This document shows positions 11,355 through 48,545 of a stretch of 64,000 bases of DNA, piece after piece. The stretch spans positions 413,046 to 477,045 of the forward strand of contig JAQUPP010000001.1 in NCBI GenBank assembly GCA_028716665.1, given 5' to 3'. Made by a program: the position numbers and the translations under genes. Origin of the DNA: Patescibacteria group bacterium (GTDB lineage Bacteria > Patescibacteriota > Patescibacteriia > UBA2591 > JAQUPP01). The notes below the pieces were generated by a model, which saw only the letters and a list, made by a program, of their open reading frames with translations, was not told where the DNA came from and did no database searches. Positions within the stretch are counted from its first letter, which is position 1; the number at the start of each line of letters is the position of its first letter.

Positions 11355-11369
11355 AAATATGATATAAAT

Positions 11370-11440
11370 AGCAGGGGCGGGGATCGAACCCGCGACGGCA
11401 CGCTTATGAAGCGTGTGCTCTACCGCTGAGCTACCCTGCC
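11370..11440 (-). tRNA. tRNA-Met (CAT), elongator type
   Basis: Cloverleaf folds with G1-U72 acceptor, anticodon loop TTCATAA, T-loop GGTTCGATCC. Confidence 0.8.
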
Positions 11441-11473
11441 ATCATTTTGTTAAGACCTGCTTAAAGTTTTAAT

Positions 11474-11544
11474 TGCGGGGGGGGGATTCGAACCCCCAAC
11501 CTCCAGGTTATGGGCCTGGCGAGCTGCCACTGCTCTACCCCGCG
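11474..11544 (-). tRNA. initiator tRNA-fMet (CAT)
   Basis: Begins CGCGGGG and ends CCCCGCA-A (C1:A72 mismatch); alignable base for base with E. coli tRNA-fMet; anticodon CAT. Confidence 0.8.
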
Positions 11545-11795
11545 TCATTAAGAAATCGATTAGTTATTCTTTTCTTTTCCAAATATCCTTTTGTCGATTT
11601 TAGAAAATATTCTCTTTTATAAGCTTCGTTTTTATCGGAATATTCTTCATGATAGACTAACTTCCATGGTCGGCGAAATTTTGTCGCCCAATCTTTGCCA
11701 CGTTGATGTTCACTAAATCTTCTCTGTAAGTTAGATGTGCAACCGATATAAAATTTATTATCTTTTAAACTTTGTAATATATAAACGTAATACAC
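11535..11795 (-). CDS. GIY-YIG nuclease family protein (small, YhbQ/UPF0213-like), copy 1
   Basis: VYIL...KFYIGCT...R..EH motif set. GTG start. The last 10 nt including the stop overlap the 5' end of tRNA-fMet. Confidence 0.8.
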   Translation of the reverse strand: MYYVYILQSLKDNKFYIGCTSNLQRRFSEHQRGKDWATKFRRPWKLVYHEEYSDKNEAYKREYFLKSTKGYLEKKRITNRFLNDAG

Positions 11796-11808
11796 AATAG
11801 ATTTTAAT

Positions 11809-11867
11809 TTATGGGCCTGGCGAGACCCGAAGGGTGGCCCTTGGCCCTGCCACTGCTCTACCCCGCG
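11809..11867 (-). repeat. partial duplicate of tRNA-fMet (positions 1-37) carrying a 22-nt GC-rich double-hairpin insertion
   Basis: CGCGGGGTAGAGCAGTGGCAG-[GGCCAAGGGCCACCCTTCGGGT]-CTCGCCAGGCCCATAA, then divergence from the tRNA. Confidence 0.7.
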
Positions 11868-12118
11868 TCATTAAGAAATCGATTAGTTATTCTTTTCTTT
11901 TCCAAATATCCTTTTGTCGATTTTAGAAAATATTCTCTTTTATAAGCTTCATTTTTATCTGAATATTCTTCATGATAGACTAACTTCCATGGTCGGCGAA
12001 ATTTTGTCGCCCAATCTTTGCCACGTTGATGTTCATTAAATCTTCTCTGCAAATTAGATGTGCAACCGATATAAAATTTATTATCTTTTAAACTTTGTAA
12101 TATATAAACGTAATACAC
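11858..12118 (-). CDS. GIY-YIG nuclease family protein, copy 2 (tandem 323-bp unit)
   Basis: One amino-acid difference from copy 1. Its 3' end overlaps the partial tRNA copy just as copy 1 overlaps the intact tRNA. Confidence 0.8.
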   Translation of the reverse strand: MYYVYILQSLKDNKFYIGCTSNLQRRFNEHQRGKDWATKFRRPWKLVYHEEYSDKNEAYKREYFLKSTKGYLEKKRITNRFLNDAG

Positions 12119-12131
12119 AATAGATTTTAAT

Positions 12132-12190
12132 CTATGGGCCTGGCGAGACCCGAAGGGTGGCCCTTGGCCCTGCCACTGCTCTACCCCGCG
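12132..12190 (-). repeat. second partial tRNA-fMet 5'-half copy with the same 22-nt insertion
   Basis: Same sequence as 11809-11867 apart from one substitution in the anticodon loop; no GIY-YIG gene follows. Confidence 0.7.
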
Positions 12191-12240
12191 TCATTAATCT
12201 ATAATGATACCTTAAATTTAATATTTCAGCAAATTGAATT

Positions 12241-12711
12241 TTAATATCGTGTTTTATTTTTTATTGACTTCCATTTTTTAAAAGGTTCCAAACATTCTTG
12301 TCGATTAACTTGTTTTGTTGTAACTTGTTTTCTTTTTGCCGTACCTTTTATGGCGTCATAAATAAATTTATCATCAAAGCCGATATTCGCCGCATCTTGT
12401 TGAGTGCAGCCATAATATAATTTTTTTATTTTTGCCCAATGAATAGCGGCAAAACACATTGGACAAGGCTCACATGAAGAATATATTTCACAATCAGAGA
12501 GATCAAATCTTTTAAGTTTTTTCGTGGCTTTTCTGATAGCAACAATTTCGGCATGAGCCGTCGGATCATTAGTCTTGATAACCTTGTTGTGACCCCGAGA
12601 TATAATTTTTTTATTGCGTACTATCACTACTCCAAAAGGGCCACCATCTTTTGTTTTTAGCGCTTTCCATGCTTCAAGCACGGCAATGCACATAAATTTA
12701 TTTTTCTCCAT
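12241..12711 (-). CDS. tadA: tRNA-specific adenosine deaminase TadA
   Basis: HAEIVAI and SCEPCPMC zinc-binding motifs. Start set at MEKNKFM; the longer track ORF runs into tRNA-Leu. Confidence 0.75.
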   Translation of the reverse strand: MEKNKFMCIAVLEAWKALKTKDGGPFGVVIVRNKKIISRGHNKVIKTNDPTAHAEIVAIRKATKKLKRFDLSDCEIYSSCEPCPMCFAAIHWAKIKKLYYGCTQQDAANIGFDDKFIYDAIKGTAKRKQVTTKQVNRQECLEPFKKWKSIKNKTRY

Positions 12712-12810: not shown

Positions 12811-12874
12811 ATTCACAATATTTTAACATTTTTTTAAATCTTGTCAAACGTTTTAAAAGTGATAAACTAAACTT

Positions 12875-23286: not shown

Positions 23287-23556
23287 ATGCCCGCCCAAAT
23301 TTTTTATTACGTATACATTTTGCGCAGTTTAAAAGATAGTAAATTTTATATTGGCTTTACAAAAGATTTAAGAAGAAGACTAGAAGAACACAATAATAAA
23401 ATGTCTACATCTACTAAATCAAGAGCGCCATTTACTTTGGTTTATTATGAAGCATATCTTCATTCAGGAGATGCCAAAGAACGAGAAAGATTTTTTAAAT
23501 CTGGGTGGGGTAGAAATTATATTAAAAAATCACTTAAACGTTATTTATGTCAATAA
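23287..23556 (+). CDS. GIY-YIG nuclease family protein, copy 3
   Basis: YYVYILRS...KFYIGFT motif set. The stop overlaps the murC start. Flanked by the two halves of a 34-nt palindrome. Confidence 0.8.
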   Translation: MPAQIFYYVYILRSLKDSKFYIGFTKDLRRRLEEHNNKMSTSTKSRAPFTLVYYEAYLHSGDAKERERFFKSGWGRNYIKKSLKRYLCQ

Positions 23557-25240: not shown

Positions 25241-25975
25241 ATGTTAACTCAAAGGCAAAATCAATTGCTTAAAACCATTGTCTCTCAATATATTAAAACC
25301 GCGGAGCCGGTTAGTTCAGAGTCATTGGCTGATAAATATAGATTGTCGGCCCAAGGCCGATCCGCCTCGGGCGGAAAAATAAGTCCGGCTACTATTCGCA
25401 ATGAGATGATGGAATTAACCAAAGAAAATTTTTTAATCCAGCCGCATACTTCGGCCGGCCGTATTCCCACTGAGAAGGCCTATCATTATTATATTAAAAA
25501 TTTTTTACAGCAAGAAGAAGTCAGCCAAATTGAAAAAAGAAAATTAAACAGCGCCAGAAAAGAAAATCAGTCTTTGGAAATTTCAGCCAAGAGAATCGGC
25601 GAGAAAATAGCGGAGTTGACCAACGGATTGGTTATTTTGGCTTTTGATAAAGATAATTTTTATTACACCGGCCTTTCTTCCTTGTTTAGCCAACCAGAAT
25701 TCAATCAAATGGAAGTTGTTTATAATGTTTCGCAAATTATAGATCATTTGGATCAAACCGTTGCCAAAATTTTTGACGAAATAGAAAGCAATCACCGCGT
25801 TTTTTTGGGACGAAGCAACCCGTTTGGTGATTTTTGCGGAACAATTTTAATCAAATATCATACACCAAATCAAAAAAGGGGCGTAGTATTGGGTCTTTTG
25901 GGACCGATGAGAATGGATTACAACAGAAATATCGCTTTAATAGAATATGCCAAAGAGATATTGGACAAAGTTTAG
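25241..25975 (+). CDS. hrcA: heat-inducible transcription repressor HrcA
   Basis: N-terminal wHTH alignable to B. subtilis HrcA (SPATIRNEM) with an 11-aa in-frame insertion; CIRCE lies upstream. Confidence 0.85.
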   Translation: MLTQRQNQLLKTIVSQYIKTAEPVSSESLADKYRLSAQGRSASGGKISPATIRNEMMELTKENFLIQPHTSAGRIPTEKAYHYYIKNFLQQEEVSQIEKRKLNSARKENQSLEISAKRIGEKIAELTNGLVILAFDKDNFYYTGLSSLFSQPEFNQMEVVYNVSQIIDHLDQTVAKIFDEIESNHRVFLGRSNPFGDFCGTILIKYHTPNQKRGVVLGLLGPMRMDYNRNIALIEYAKEILDKV

Positions 25976-25992
25976 AAATTAAAAATTTTATT

Positions 25993-26286
25993 ATGCCAGG
26001 TAGTGAAACTTTGATAACGATTATGTTTTATTATGTCTATGTTTTACAAAGTATAAAAAATAATGGCCTTTATGTGGGTTATACTTTAGATTTAAAGAAA
26101 AGATTACAAGAACATAATCGTAAATTAAATTTTTCTACCAAAGCAAATATCCCATGGAAACTTATTCACTATGAAGCCTATCTTAATAAAGACGATGCGC
26201 AACGTCGAGAGAAATATCTCAAAACTTCTCAAGGAGCCAGATTATTAAAGCGCATGCTTAAAGAATATTTTTATAATAATAAATAA
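25993..26286 (+). CDS. GIY-YIG nuclease family protein, copy 4 (between hrcA and grpE)
   Basis: MFYYVYVLQS...LYVGYT motif set; ATG embedded in the left terminal inverted repeat. Confidence 0.7.
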   Translation: MPGSETLITIMFYYVYVLQSIKNNGLYVGYTLDLKKRLQEHNRKLNFSTKANIPWKLIHYEAYLNKDDAQRREKYLKTSQGARLLKRMLKEYFYNNK

Positions 26287-42491: not shown

Positions 42492-43817
42492 ATGGATAAA
42501 AAATCATTGGAAATTGTAATGTTCAATATGTCGAGCTTTTCAGAATGGGAAGGCGGCATTGTGAATCGCAATTATCATATTTTCAATAAATTATCGCAAG
42601 ATGAAAAAGTAAAACGGATAATTGCCGTTGATTTTTTGCCTTTTACTTTCAGAAGAGCTTTGAGAAATTATTTGGAAAATATTTTGAAAACCACAAATTA
42701 CAAATCTAATGCAGACATAAAAGTTACAAATATTTATCGGGATTTTACCACTAAATGCGTGAAAATTGTTGGATTGGCGCCGGCTGAAATTTATGTTTTT
42801 TCAACCATTGATTCAATATTTACCCGCCCAAATTTTTTGAAGAAAAATTTAGGCGGTTTTTCTTCTCATCAAATAGTTTTAAAAAAATTAAACAAGATAT
42901 TGATTAAAATCAACAAGAATCAGCCGGAAAAAACCAAGAGAGTTATTTGGTCATATTTTCCGATGTTTGTTGACTATTTCTCGGCCCAAGGCCGATCCGC
43001 CTCGGGCGGAAATGGCATACCCGCTGATTTGACGGTTTTCGACGCAGTGGACAATTGGATTGAACATCCTTCTTTCGCGCGCTATAAAAAATTATTAGAG
43101 AAAAATTATAAAATAATTTCCCAAAAAAGCGATTTAATTTTCACCGTAGCGGAAAATTTGGTGGAATTTTTTAAAAATTTAGGCAGGAACAAAGATGTCT
43201 ATTGGATCGCCAACGGCGTTGAACCCAAGCATTTTGCCAAGGAACAGTCTGTGCTTAAAAATGATCCCATTTTAATGATTTCTCGTCCGATTATCGGTTA
43301 TGTCGGGACAATTCAAAACAGGGTTGATTTTAATCTTTTGGAATATTTGGCTCAGCAAAATCCTGATAAATCTTTTGTCTTGATTGGTCCGCTTTGGCCG
43401 GTCTTTTTGAGAAAATTGCGCCGACCGACTACGGAAATAAAAAAATTGAAAAAATACAAAAATATTCATTTATTGGGCCGCCGACCATATGATTTGACAC
43501 CGGCTTATATTAAATTTTTTGACGTGGCGATTAATCCTCATAAACTCGATGAATTTATAAAATACACAGATTCTTTAAAGGTTTTGGAATATTTGGCTTG
43601 CGGTATGCCAGTGGTAACTACGCCGCCCTCGGGCGTGGAAAAATTTTCTCACCTTCTTTATATTGCCGCAGATTACCAAGATTTTAATAAAAATATTGAG
43701 ACAGCTCTTGCCGAAAATCAGCCGGAATTAAAAGAGAAAAGATTAATAAGAATAAAAGAAGAGGATTGGGACAATAAACTTTTAGAAATGATGAATATTT
43801 TAAAAACTAAGATTTAA
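42492..43817 (+). CDS. glycosyltransferase family 1 (GT4-like)
   Basis: C-terminal LEYLACGMPVVTTP. Contains the 34-nt palindrome and the 32-nt double-hairpin insert, both in frame. Confidence 0.55.
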   Translation: MDKKSLEIVMFNMSSFSEWEGGIVNRNYHIFNKLSQDEKVKRIIAVDFLPFTFRRALRNYLENILKTTNYKSNADIKVTNIYRDFTTKCVKIVGLAPAEIYVFSTIDSIFTRPNFLKKNLGGFSSHQIVLKKLNKILIKINKNQPEKTKRVIWSYFPMFVDYFSAQGRSASGGNGIPADLTVFDAVDNWIEHPSFARYKKLLEKNYKIISQKSDLIFTVAENLVEFFKNLGRNKDVYWIANGVEPKHFAKEQSVLKNDPILMISRPIIGYVGTIQNRVDFNLLEYLAQQNPDKSFVLIGPLWPVFLRKLRRPTTEIKKLKKYKNIHLLGRRPYDLTPAYIKFFDVAINPHKLDEFIKYTDSLKVLEYLACGMPVVTTPPSGVEKFSHLLYIAADYQDFNKNIETALAENQPELKEKRLIRIKEEDWDNKLLEMMNILKTKI

Positions 43818-48092: not shown

Positions 48093-48207
48093 CCTTACGG
48101 GCGAAGAAAATAATTTGCCAAATTTTGAAAATTTGTTATAATAATTTTAATATTGCGGGATCGTCCCTCGGCCGTAGCCAGTAGGCTACTGCCTACGGGC
48201 GAGGCTA

Positions 48208-48462
48208 ATGGTAAATAAAACAATGCATACAATTTATGTTTTAAGAAGTCTGAAAGATGATAATTTATATATAGGCTGTACTTCTGATTTACAGAAGAGA
48301 TTAAGAGAACATAGAAATAAAAAAGTTTTTTCTACTCGCAATAGGTTGCCAATGAAGTTAATTTATTTTGAAAATTACCCTGATAAATATGAAGCTTATA
48401 GAATGGAAAGATTTTATAAAACCGCTAAAGGTAAAAAAATAATTAAAAACAAAATAATATAA
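48208..48462 (+). CDS. GIY-YIG nuclease family protein, copy 5 (immediately 5' of tRNA-Gln)
   Basis: IYVLRS...LYIGCT motif set; flanked by 12-nt direct repeats TGCGGGATCGTC. Confidence 0.75.
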   Translation: MVNKTMHTIYVLRSLKDDNLYIGCTSDLQKRLREHRNKKVFSTRNRLPMKLIYFENYPDKYEAYRMERFYKTAKGKKIIKNKII

Positions 48463-48469
48463 TAAATAA

Positions 48470-48545
48470 TGCGGGATCGTCTAATGGTAGGACTCCAGCC
48501 TTTGGAGCTGGCTATGATGGTTCGAATCCATCTCCCGCAGCCAAA
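48470..48545 (+). tRNA. tRNA-Gln (TTG)
   Basis: U1-A72 acceptor typical of bacterial tRNA-Gln, anticodon loop CTTTGGA, GGTTCGAATCC T-arm, encoded CCA. Confidence 0.8.

Follow-up and report, generated by a model that had tools for sequence, protein, structure and literature searches.

[quoted passage not shown] SegB is the closest precedent for the array described here, with which it shares the physical linkage of a GIY-YIG gene to tRNA genes of many isotypes. SegB carries DNA-binding modules, is larger and phage-borne, and amplifies full-length tRNA genes, whereas the array protein has 86 aa, all predicted catalytic domain of the UPF0213/Slx1 clade, and does not show the Seg-type layout of a catalytic domain joined to sequence-reading DNA-binding modules. 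The array is also chromosomal, without relatives in viral contigs, and its extra tRNA copies are truncated and bear GC-rich palindromes.

Other selfish elements share single features with the array. Group I introns with homing endonuclease genes in the anticodon loops of bacterial tRNA genes (e.g. PMC13011429) are likewise selfish nuclease genes in tRNA genes, and both they and the cassette are common in Patescibacteria. In contrast to these introns, the array has no ribozyme (no intron match in Rfam), its 257-bp insert is almost all ORF, and duplication of DNA takes the place of splicing in restoring its tRNA; the cassette design goes unmentioned in the paper on patescibacterial tRNA introns (PMC13011429). 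In tRNA-targeting integrative elements, too, the insert is bordered by a directly repeated tRNA segment and the tRNA is left intact. Such elements extend over kilobases and bring their own integrase, and the part of the tRNA gene that they duplicate is usually the 3' one, whereas the array unit of 0.3 kb contains no integrase or recombinase gene and duplicates the 5' part. In the atp6 gene of Allomyces (fungal mitochondria), a mobile GIY-YIG ORF reportedly occupies an essential gene whose function is kept by a duplicated segment, the displaced piece being a pseudo-fragment; that case is said to be organellar, with a protein-coding target and a duplicated 3' end, whereas the array involves a tRNA, its 5' part and a hairpin in the spare copy. 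GC-rich double-hairpin elements have spread in an AT-rich mitochondrial genome, although to our knowledge no link between hairpin and nuclease has been established in fungal mitochondria. Rickettsia palindromic elements and miniature palindromic repeats are likewise short palindromic inserts that can sit in frame in coding genes, but the inserts reported here (22–30 nt) are much shorter, stand out by their GC content from an AT-rich genome, and cluster in the spare tRNA copies that accompany GIY-YIG genes.

In the window (the whole stretch of DNA analysed, 64,000 nucleotides), the minus strand carries, in this order, a partial tRNA-fMet, a GIY-YIG ORF, a second partial tRNA-fMet, a second GIY-YIG ORF, an intact tRNA-fMet and a tRNA-Met, with every element located where a previous inspection of the DNA, hereafter the sequence-only reading, had placed it. 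Partial copy A (12132–12190) consists of tRNA nt 1–21 (12190–12170), a 22-nt double hairpin (12169–12148) and nt 22–37 (12147–12132); copy B (11809–11867) likewise consists of nt 1–21, a hairpin (11846–11825) and nt 22–37. The tRNA segments of both are identical to the intact tRNA. As had been proposed, they end in the anticodon loop; tRNA-derived sequence stops at nt 37 and the cassette begins after nt 37/38. ORF1 (11858–12118) and ORF2 (11535–11795) each encode 86 aa from a GTG start and have no stop codon of their own, TAG being nt 8–10 of the next tRNA copy, i.e. of copy B for ORF1 and of the intact tRNA-fMet for ORF2. The intact initiator tRNA-fMet (CAT; 11473–11544) is the only functional copy, and the elongator tRNA-Met (11368–11441) follows it in filled and empty alleles alike; both were recognized by ARAGORN and by Rfam (62.8 and 67 bits, respectively). 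The tRNA-fMet is preserved because the intact copy stands downstream of the cassette, while the upstream tRNA-fMet copy is a truncated left-over.

Tandem Repeats Finder reported a period of 323 bp (2.1 copies, 98% matches), as had been read by eye. Six differences separate the two units: one is the base after CAUA and five lie in the ORF (4 synonymous, 1 Asn/Ser). The sole ORF within the unit is the GIY-YIG gene. The description of the unit was extended by a 7-nt leader, TTAATGA, upstream of the tRNA (12191–12197, minus strand), which forms the left edge of the duplicated segment and recurs at 11868–11874 and 11545–11551. The 22-mer GGCCAAGGGCCACCCTTCGGGT occurs exactly twice in the window (0 expected), in the two partial copies and not in the intact tRNA. 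Its position in the D-stem could be made precise: it separates nt 21, which is the first base of the D-stem 3' strand, from nt 22, and is not inside the loop. The best reading of the insert is a pair of 4-bp stems closed by loops of 3 nt (AAG and TTC), in place of the TTCG tetraloop given by the sequence-only reading. A 9-mer common to the native leader and the junction after copy A (ATAGATTAA) hinted at insertion at TTAA in the duplicated leader; since this pattern is absent from three other tRNA-fMet loci (L086, L088, and L096), it was taken as a local coincidence.

The same two-unit array is present in two other MAG assemblies (GCA_028690995.1 and GCA_028713475.1), with 0–1 mismatch over 2 kb, which shows that it is no assembly artefact, a concern that the sequence-only reading had raised. 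Relatives without the array were located by means of a DNA pattern for the intact tRNA-fMet. In two of them, L101 and L090, the window locus exists as an empty allele, with the same upstream flank, flanks that are 90–94% identical, no cassette, and a tRNA-fMet identical to the window's intact copy at 72/72 bases; adding two units of 323 bp to this empty site therefore yields the locus seen in the window. What each unit contributes beyond the empty allele is a cassette of ~257 bp, a duplicate of the segment from leader nt -7 to tRNA nt +37, and the 22-nt GC palindrome. A second filled/empty pair at tRNA-fMet, involving another GIY-YIG lineage, is formed by L086 (filled) and L104 (empty), with flanks 98.5–99.1% identical and a 340-bp insertion as the difference. 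In both pairs the nuclease gene is thus free-standing, located between genes and present or absent among close relatives. Among 31 metagenomic copies of this type of tRNA-fMet, about 9 are occupied, and the ORFs in them belong to at least 3 lineages. The deaminase gene neighbouring the array was also tried as a route to the empty site, and its closest homologues (P0044 and P0045) were found in other contexts; this deaminase gene family is spread across archaea and Clostridia.

Two 98%-identical units between short repeats are the expected product of unequal crossing-over, and the array could be viewed as an ordinary local tandem duplication of a gene that happens to precede a tRNA, or as an artefact of assembly. 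This explanation, which we find scarcely credible, is contradicted by the two further assemblies, by the empty alleles in relatives, and by dozens of genomes in which the same architecture recurs, at 15 or more tRNA identities. The arrangement also occurs beyond the window's genome, and the earlier interpretation needs to be extended in this respect.

The family was explored by a locus scan of genome contigs using a profile built from 9 closer sequences, and at least 424 relatives were confirmed among 600 candidate stretches from species-representative genomes. Among 80 related loci, a same-strand tRNA lies within 250 nt of the small GIY-YIG ORF in 61 (1.4 expected), with 70 same-strand tRNAs and no opposite-strand tRNA within this distance. 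The ORF stops between -37 and +30 nt relative to tRNA nt +1. In 42 of 60 loci the ORF is flanked on its opposite side by a second, partial copy of the same tRNA, and at least 23 of these 42 partial copies contain an internal GC-rich insert at nt 9–21 or nt 32–35; the partial copies are usually interrupted by GC-rich perfect palindromes, in the D arm or the anticodon loop. The hairpin is a regular component of the design and no accident of the fMet locus. The extent of the duplication differs from locus to locus, and tandem arrays were also found in L003, L031, L052, and L064. The design is spread over Patescibacteria, Omnitrophota, Bacteroidota, Planctomycetota and others. The window itself contains 5 GIY-YIG ORFs and a second instance of the design on the plus strand, in which a partial tRNA-Gln (48154–48213; nt 1–12, a 39-nt GC-rich hairpin at 48166–48204, and nt 12–20) precedes a GIY-YIG ORF of 79 aa (48223–48462) that is 50% identical to the array ORF and ends 7 nt before an intact tRNA-Gln (TTG; 48470–48543; found by tRNA finder and Rfam). 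The 39-nt hairpin is nearly identical to that in the tRNA-Gln partial copy of L080.

The array protein matched the Pfam GIY-YIG family (PF01541) above the curated cut-off (E=9.9e-18, residues 1–70 of 86). Profile searches of PDB gave matches to 1zg2 (UPF0213, 5e-16), 1ywl (1e-12), Slx1 (4e-6 to 2e-4) and I-TevI (0.02), and Foldseek reproduced this ranking with 1zg2, Slx1 (TM 0.6–0.66, about 30% identity) and, weakly, I-TevI. The AlphaFold model of ORF2 (pLDDT 93.4), with strands at residues 2–9, 15–20 and 44–52 and helices at 23–32, 36–39, 55–66 and 71–85, has the beta-beta-alpha-alpha-beta-alpha GIY-YIG fold. Residues Y16, G18, H30, R61, and E62, in and around the GIY and YIG motifs, are invariant in 28 homologues, and Y2, V4, Y5, and R26 are nearly so. 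Both array copies in the window retain these residues, and putative catalytic residues were assigned from the family-motif positions. No auxiliary or DNA-binding domain was detected in the 86-aa protein, the whole length of which is catalytic domain, and the NCBIfam model for group-I-intron endonucleases covers residues 4–32 only, below its cut-off. On the basis of sequence and model, the protein is a predicted nuclease of the UPF0213/Slx1 clade consisting of the catalytic domain only.

Its best match in both sequence and fold is UPF0213 (BH0048, EF2693), which is, like the array protein, a minimal GIY-YIG domain; the survey of the UPF0213 proteins names no mobile behaviour, tRNA-gene linkage or hairpin companion (PMC1564403). 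Slx1 is a eukaryotic repair nuclease acting with Slx4 on branched DNA. The array protein lacks a DNA-binding domain and relatives such as Slx1 recognize DNA structure rather than sequence, so that the fold by itself gives no reason to expect sequence-specific homing.

The cassette sits within the tRNA-fMet transcription unit in the same orientation as the tRNA. A candidate native tRNA-fMet promoter (TTGCTG-17 nt-TATCAT; 12204–12232, minus strand) was read from the sequence upstream of the first partial copy, and this flank is also directly upstream of the intact tRNA-fMet in L101 and L090; as it scores below the threshold of the consensus scan, we treat it as a candidate only. An alternative candidate promoter position is 12820–12847. 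The same scan gave no terminator or strong promoter match between the ORFs and the tRNA, suggesting that the array ORFs are co-transcribed with the essential tRNA. Rfam scans of the region (E<=10) and of the whole window (gathering threshold) returned only the four tRNAs, which rules out a group I intron or a known leader RNA; the partial copies also lack a 3' exon.

It is conceivable, though quite improbable in our judgment, that the cassette is mainly an expression device at the RNA level, which relies on the promoter of the tRNA and on processing by RNase P; partial tRNA and hairpins together would then make up a structured 5' leader (or 3' trailer) that keeps the nuclease mRNA stable, regulates it, or keeps the tRNA precursor from misfolding. 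The strict co-orientation, the ORF stop within the tRNA, the uninterrupted path from ORF to tRNA in the consensus scan, and the left edge of the duplication (-7), which in both the window and L086 is about at the expected transcript start, are consistent with such a device. So are the orientation of the hairpins, which is constant relative to the tRNA sense strand, and the compensating changes in their stems, the double hairpin being formally strongly covarying (14 instances), a result that was discounted because 10 of the 14 instances came from a finder demanding perfect stems. However, the 59-nt and 81-nt partial-tRNA leaders fold no better than shuffled sequences (z 0.05 to -1.2) and thus give no support for RNA structure beyond the two mini-hairpins, no Rfam family was matched, and no signature of an RNA strand is evident, as the sense strand shows no excess of G-U pairs (11, versus 19 on the antisense strand) and stability is equal on both strands. 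Hairpins of the same kind also lie in frame inside coding genes.

These are an identical 30-mer double hairpin at 25346–25375 and 42981–43010 of the window, located in hrcA and a glycosyltransferase gene, far from any cassette. As in miniature palindromic repeats, the short palindromic units are present in multiple copies at unrelated sites. Identical hairpin sequences recur across different tRNAs and different genomes: the 22-mer type was found in at least 15 loci, one 20-mer is common to L047, L063, and L066, and related ORFs with the same 22-nt hairpin are associated with fMet, Asn, Ser, Tyr, Val, and Ala tRNAs. The stems are pure Watson-Crick on both strands. No target-site duplication is visible around the 22-nt inserts, and the sole candidate for an enzyme that might mobilize them is the GIY-YIG protein. 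The tRNA sequence flanking the hairpin matches the local tRNA, including lineage-specific anticodon-stem bases, so that the hairpin looks like a separate insertion into the local copy and not like DNA from a donor. In one ORF subfamily (L029, L036, L039, L054, L055, and L077) there is no tRNA, and the ORF is bracketed by 13–15-bp GC-rich inverted repeats, which places it in the loop of a long hairpin.

A rival explanation is a transposon-like system acting on DNA structure, in which the GC-rich perfect palindromes are the real mobile units. An Slx1-like nuclease would cut extruded hairpins or tRNA-gene DNA folded into a cloverleaf, the ORF copies being autonomous and the bare hairpins non-autonomous; tRNA genes would be preferred because they fold into branched DNA, and the partial tRNA duplication would be a long target-site duplication arising from staggered cuts. 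The grouping of the protein, by fold and sequence, with the structure-specific Slx1 and not with I-TevI or the Seg enzymes, the Watson-Crick stems lacking an RNA-strand signature, the tRNA-less ORFs between inverted repeats, the in-frame hairpins in two coding genes, the sharing of hairpins among tRNAs and genomes, and the variable extent of the duplication all point in this direction. Nevertheless, terminal inverted repeats are missing from the tRNA-linked cassettes, the hairpins lack a short target-site duplication on their flanks, and the constant orientation of the hairpins is not predicted by purely symmetric recognition of structure. We know of no GIY-YIG transposase in bacteria. On balance we regard this explanation as unlikely. 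In a broader form, which we put forward tentatively as possible though doubtful, the data would represent a new class of bacterial mobile element that combines GC-rich perfect palindromes with a minimal GIY-YIG nuclease, Slx1-like and specific for DNA structure, with inverted-repeat-bracketed ORFs as autonomous members and with bare hairpins, which plug spare tRNA copies and invade coding genes in frame, as non-autonomous ones. If tRNA-gene DNA were recognized by its fold, as a cloverleaf or cruciform, and not by its sequence, the presence of close relatives at more than 15 tRNA identities would be explained.

The reading that we favour, with a probability of roughly 0.55, is that the array consists of a selfish mobile mini-cassette present twice in tandem, and that such a cassette resides in tRNA genes and re-establishes them through duplication instead of splicing. 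A selfish GIY-YIG cassette invading or duplicating at the 5' side of the tRNA had already been suggested by the sequence-only reading, and the empty alleles, the family-wide linkage to tRNAs and hairpin-bearing partial copies, and the recurrent arrays lend support to it. The cutting step and the role of the hairpin may be envisaged as follows. The nuclease would break an unoccupied tRNA gene, in tRNA-fMet probably near nt 21/22; an indirect hint for this position is the recurrent hairpin site at nt 21/22 of tRNA-fMet (the window, L086, L088, and L096) together with the truncation of the L003 partial copy at nt 21. Repair would then copy from the occupied allele, homology being provided on the left by the tRNA's 5' part and on the right by its remainder. 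The palindrome at the break site of the spare copy may block re-cutting and also keep the repeats from annealing with each other and so deleting the cassette. The intact copy would remain a target and the flanking repeats would invite unequal exchange, either route leading to tandem arrays.

Several observations sit less easily with homing. Since the presumed target is kept in the intact tRNA copy, the occupied allele would not be immune, unlike in classical homing. The protein is devoid of a DNA-binding domain and its Slx1 relatives read structure, and similar in-frame hairpins occur in two protein-coding genes far from the cassettes. The match of the sequence around the hairpin to the local tRNA, which makes the hairpin look like a separate insertion, also speaks against a donor origin. 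ORF clades track tRNA identity, but this could partly reflect vertical descent. In addition, no relatives were found in viral contigs and there is hence no candidate transfer vector.

A selfish cassette was also weighed against a module that serves or addicts the host, either a nuclease whose substrate is tRNA or RNA and for which the pseudo-tRNA with its hairpin would serve as decoy or antidote (cf. repeat-RNA antitoxins), or an amplifier of tRNA dosage. Tandem repeats beside a nuclease gene resemble type III toxin-antitoxin layouts, and the ORFs are kept intact in ~77 of 80 loci. Amplification of tRNA genes driven by SegB benefits the phage (PMC13096335). The amplified tRNA copies are, however, truncated and disrupted, so that tRNA dosage is not raised, and no RNase activity is known for the UPF0213/Slx1-type clade; presence or absence between near-identical genomes and the five copies in 64 kb fit a parasite better. 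We consider such a module very improbable.

The sequence-only reading did not know the arrangement from what is described of tRNA introns or integrative elements. In a full-text literature search we found no description of small GIY-YIG genes flanked by hairpin-bearing partial tRNA copies, which in itself is no proof that the design is undescribed, whereas a functional precedent does exist in phages, where SegB is associated with tRNA genes (PMC13096335). The genes are annotated merely as 'GIY-YIG nuclease family protein', and the partial tRNA copies escape tRNA finders.

If the selfish-cassette reading holds, a selfish gene of ~260 bp has an intron-free life inside essential, highly transcribed tRNA genes, which are rebuilt by duplication of their 5' part, the left-over copy being marked by a palindrome. 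Chromosomal biology would thereby be tied to the SegB-tRNA amplification recently shown in phages, and the uncharacterized bacterial nucleases of the UPF0213/Slx1 type gain a testable substrate hypothesis, namely tRNA-gene DNA and GC hairpins. The in-frame hairpins in hrcA and the glycosyltransferase gene suggest a wider biology of palindromic elements in Patescibacteria. The design may explain contig breaks at tRNA loci and the occurrence of tRNA-gene fragments, and tandem amplification in reduced genomes may in part originate from it.

On the minus strand of the window (35% G+C), which comes from a patescibacterium, the array starts with a 59-nt partial tRNA-fMet (12190–12132), followed by a GIY-YIG ORF (12118–11858; 86 aa, GTG start), a second partial tRNA-fMet (11867–11809), a second ORF (11795–11535), the intact initiator tRNA-fMet (11544–11473; CAT anticodon by ARAGORN, 62.8 bits against the Rfam tRNA model) and an elongator tRNA-Met (11441–11368). 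All elements of the order proposed in the sequence-only reading were thus located, and its 323-bp period was recovered by Tandem Repeats Finder (2.1 copies, 98% matches). Each partial copy comprises tRNA nt 1–21, the 22-mer GGCCAAGGGCCACCCTTCGGGT and nt 22–37; in its tRNA-derived parts it does not differ from the intact gene, confirming the proposed derivation from tRNA-fMet, and the 22-mer, which had been described as common to both partial copies, occurs in the window only at these two places (0 occurrences expected). The repeat unit also takes in the 7 nt TTAATGA ahead of the tRNA, and each ORF ends, as had been noted, at a TAG in the downstream tRNA copy, made by tRNA nt 8–10. The two units differ at 6 positions, 5 of them within the ORF (4 synonymous, 1 Asn/Ser). 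Since the same two-unit array is present in two other MAG assemblies with 0–1 mismatch over 2 kb, a collapsed or expanded repeat, which the earlier reading had named as a possible artefact, was ruled out.

Metagenomes were scanned with the sequence of the intact tRNA-fMet, yielding 31 loci (loci of related sequences from other genomes or metagenomes carry L-numbers). The search for related genomes with and without the array, which had been suggested, was productive: in L101 and L090, closely related to the window organism (90–94% identity in the flanking genes), the upstream flank is as in the window (...TTGCTGAAATAT.AAATTTAAGGTAT.ATTATAGATTAATGA) and is joined straight to a tRNA-fMet identical to that of the window at 72/72 bases. 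The tRNA-Met and the membrane-protein gene come next, as in the window, and the locus lacks a GIY-YIG ORF. The window locus therefore corresponds to the empty site extended by 2 x 323 bp. Similarly, L086 is occupied by a GIY-YIG ORF from a different lineage (53% identity), and L104, with flanks 98.5–99.1% identical to it, lacks a 340-bp segment; in this comparison positions -7 to +21 align at two places. Of the 31 tRNA-fMet loci, about 9 are occupied, by at least 3 ORF lineages, and exactly one extra tRNA 5' copy, 340–366 nt upstream, was found in all occupied loci and in no empty one. Each unit extends the empty allele by i) a cassette of about 257 bp (14-nt leader and 81 codons), ii) a second copy of the segment from leader nt -7 to tRNA nt +37, and iii) a palindrome in the upstream tRNA copy. 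Plain duplication is an improbable reading. The intact tRNA is left downstream of the cassette, so that its function is kept without splicing.

The L086 partial copy has two substitutions (CGCGAGATAG vs CGCGGGGTAG), although its flanks are 99% identical to the empty L104, and its G5-to-A change is also present in ORF-adjacent copies of L003; these changes may be donor-derived or reflect selected inactivation of the acceptor strand. A nucleoside (guanine-type) deaminase gene (12241–12711, minus strand) lies between tRNA-Leu and the array. Since it is absent from L090 and its nearest homologues are scattered across archaea, Clostridia and CPR bacteria, the tRNA-Leu/tRNA-fMet interval looks like a hotspot for acquired DNA.

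Relatives were sought in one genome per species, and at least 424 were confirmed among 600 candidate stretches examined; 80 of their loci were fetched for comparison. In 61/80 loci, the GIY-YIG ORF has a tRNA no more than 250 nt away, and all 70 tRNAs at this distance are on the same strand as the ORF (0 opposite), compared with 1.4 expected from the background density of the same loci. These tRNAs have at least 15 identities, and the ORF stop typically lies in the interval from 30 nt ahead of tRNA nt +1 to 37 nt into the tRNA. An intact tRNA is directly upstream of the ORF in 19/80 loci, being the sole adjacent intact tRNA in 15 of them. Among the 60 loci with an adjacent intact tRNA, 42 have a second, partial copy of the same tRNA across the ORF, which in at least 23 is broken by a 19–63-nt insert forming a perfect hairpin (43–86% G+C, most >60%) after tRNA nt 9–21 (D arm) or nt 32–35 (anticodon loop); in many further loci, the partial copy ends in a hairpin or a palindrome takes the place of a tRNA arm. 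The window itself, with 5 GIY-YIG genes, contains a second instance, consisting of a partial tRNA-Gln with a 39-nt hairpin (48154–48213), a 79-aa ORF (48223–48462) and the intact tRNA-Gln (48470–48543). Two more small GIY-YIG ORFs (23287–23556 and 26023–26286, plus strand), which share 44–49% identity with the array ORF, lack a nearby tRNA, and one of them shares 10 nt with the beginning of the gene that follows. Many of the fetched contigs end inside the adjacent tRNA or a few hundred bases from the ORF (L001, L014, L016, L020, L025, L027, L044, L047, L049 and L060), which suggests that these modules are repeats that break short-read assemblies.

Tandem arrays were also found in L003, L052, L031 and L064. 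The tRNA-fMet/tRNA-Met pair of the window is also found in L003 (448–1300), where it is accompanied by two ORFs and four partial fMet copies with hairpins, each made of nt 1–14, a 22-nt hairpin and nt 15–21. Two of these four are ORF-less 88-nt units, which also duplicate a promoter-like TTGAAA...AATTAT segment. In L052 (1784–3320), from a Bacteroidales MAG, an intact tRNA-Pro is followed by at least 3 units of 363 bp, each with an ORF and a full-length tRNA-Pro copy in which the palindrome CCCCGCCGTTGGCGGGG replaces the D arm; the last copy has its T arm replaced too, and the altered copies are still called tRNA-Pro by ARAGORN. L099 and L113 carry a tandem 30-nt unit (CGCGTAGCGAAGCGAAGTGGTAGCTTGCGG) about 130 nt upstream of tRNA-fMet and downstream of a distant GIY-YIG ORF (35% identity); these units look like degenerate copies of the tRNA-fMet 5' part.

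The array ORF matches the Pfam GIY-YIG family over residues 1–70 (E=1e-17), placing it in this superfamily. Among solved structures, a profile of 28 homologues best matched the UPF0213 proteins BH0048 (5e-16) and EF2693, followed by Slx1, and reached only 0.02 with I-TevI. The AlphaFold model (pLDDT 93.4) likewise had UPF0213 and the Slx1 nuclease domain as its top structural matches (TM 0.6–0.66, rmsd about 2.1–2.4 A over 72 residues), with I-TevI far lower. Across homologues, the GIY and YIG tyrosines and conserved Arg, His and Glu residues are invariant or nearly so, and the protein has no DNA-binding module. Together, these results assign it as a predicted catalytic-domain-only nuclease of the structure-specific Slx1/UPF0213 clade. 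In a neighbor-joining tree of short GIY-YIG proteins, of low resolution, the groups follow tRNA identity and side.

The window-type 22-nt double hairpin has two 4-bp stems, with a purine-rich triloop followed by a TTC or TTT loop. This type is carried in the D arm by spare tRNA-Asn, Ser, Tyr, Val, Ala, Met and fMet copies. Almost every instance in the fetched sequence (about 440 kb) is within a tRNA copy beside an ORF, mostly 13–62 nt upstream of the GIY-YIG start, and the purine loop invariably comes first. Compensating changes occur in the stems and were given little weight because most instances had been selected for perfect stems. In the window, L086, L088 and L096, hairpins of unrelated sequence occupy one and the same position, between nt 21 and 22, and the L003 partial copy ends at nt 21. 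The stems are purely Watson-Crick on both strands, and no G-U excess was found on the sense strand, which argues for a role at the DNA level; an RNA-level expression device is an improbable reading. Since the tRNA sequence flanking the hairpin matches the local tRNA on either side, the hairpin looks like a separate insertion event.

An identical 30-nt GC-rich double hairpin (TCGGCCCAAGGCCGATCCGCCTCGGGCGGA) is present at 25346–25375 and 42981–43010 (plus strand), adding 10 codons (SAQGRSASGG) in frame to hrcA and a glycosyltransferase gene. In HrcA, it lies in the winged-helix domain and fits an exact 10-residue gap relative to the T. maritima protein (1stz); its modules also occur in the spare tRNA-Ser copy of L023. 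In a subfamily of tRNA-less ORFs (L029, L036, L039, L054, L055 and L077), 13–15-bp GC-rich inverted repeats, e.g. CCCCCACACCTTT ... AAAGGTGTGGGGG, bracket the ORF, which therefore lies in the loop of a long hairpin. Such repeats, the in-frame hairpins, the Watson-Crick stems, the apparent separate insertion of the hairpin, the lack of immunity of the occupied allele and the structure-specific cutting suggested by the Slx1-type fold together support a transposon-like, structure-guided system of palindromes and nuclease, with bare hairpins as non-autonomous derivatives. We consider this, the main rival reading, unlikely overall.

We favor, at a probability of roughly 0.55, a homing-like GIY-YIG cassette in a tRNA gene, even though the modeled fold points to structure-specific rather than sequence-specific cutting and the occupied allele is not immune. 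Empty alleles, family-wide tRNA linkage and recurrent arrays uphold the original proposal of a selfish cassette invading or duplicating at the tRNA 5' side; a host-serving module appears less probable than even the transposon-like system. These readings are not fully exclusive and may overlap. In the homing-like process, the nuclease would break a tRNA gene and the break would be repaired by copying an occupied allele, with the two portions of the tRNA, its 5' part and the remainder, as homology arms. In the spare copy, the palindrome would mark and block the site of the break; were it absent, repair of a break at that site could proceed by annealing to the downstream repeat, precisely deleting the cassette. 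The intact tRNA copy would stay cleavable and the repeats would favor unequal exchange, both leading to arrays.

The cassette does not bring its own stop codon, and since no promoter or terminator match was found between cassette and tRNA, we infer that it is transcribed together with the essential tRNA. The left edge of the duplicated segment (-7) is about 7 nt past a -10-like hexamer in the window (TTGCTG-17-TATCAT, region 12191–12232, minus strand) and in L086 (TTGATA-17-TAATAT, upstream of the partial copy). Since this edge approximates the predicted transcription start, the duplication may represent the first ~40 nt of the primary transcript.

A precedent is SegB of phage T6, also a GIY-YIG enzyme, which cuts inside tRNA genes (PMC13096335; PMC2330249) and is needed for a 718-bp tRNA-Tyr and segB unit to be amplified in tandem through recombination; segB-tRNA linkage is widespread in phages (PMC13096335). 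By domain architecture, the array protein falls outside the Seg-type homing endonucleases. The array fits neither the group I intron model nor the integrative-element model. Full-text searches of incomplete coverage, and hence not proof, found no published description of the design, which is described neither in a GIY-YIG phylogenomic survey (PMC1564403) nor in a study of patescibacterial tRNA introns (PMC13011429). We class the design with the nuclease genes known to parasitise tRNA loci; it is widespread, unannotated and open to direct testing.
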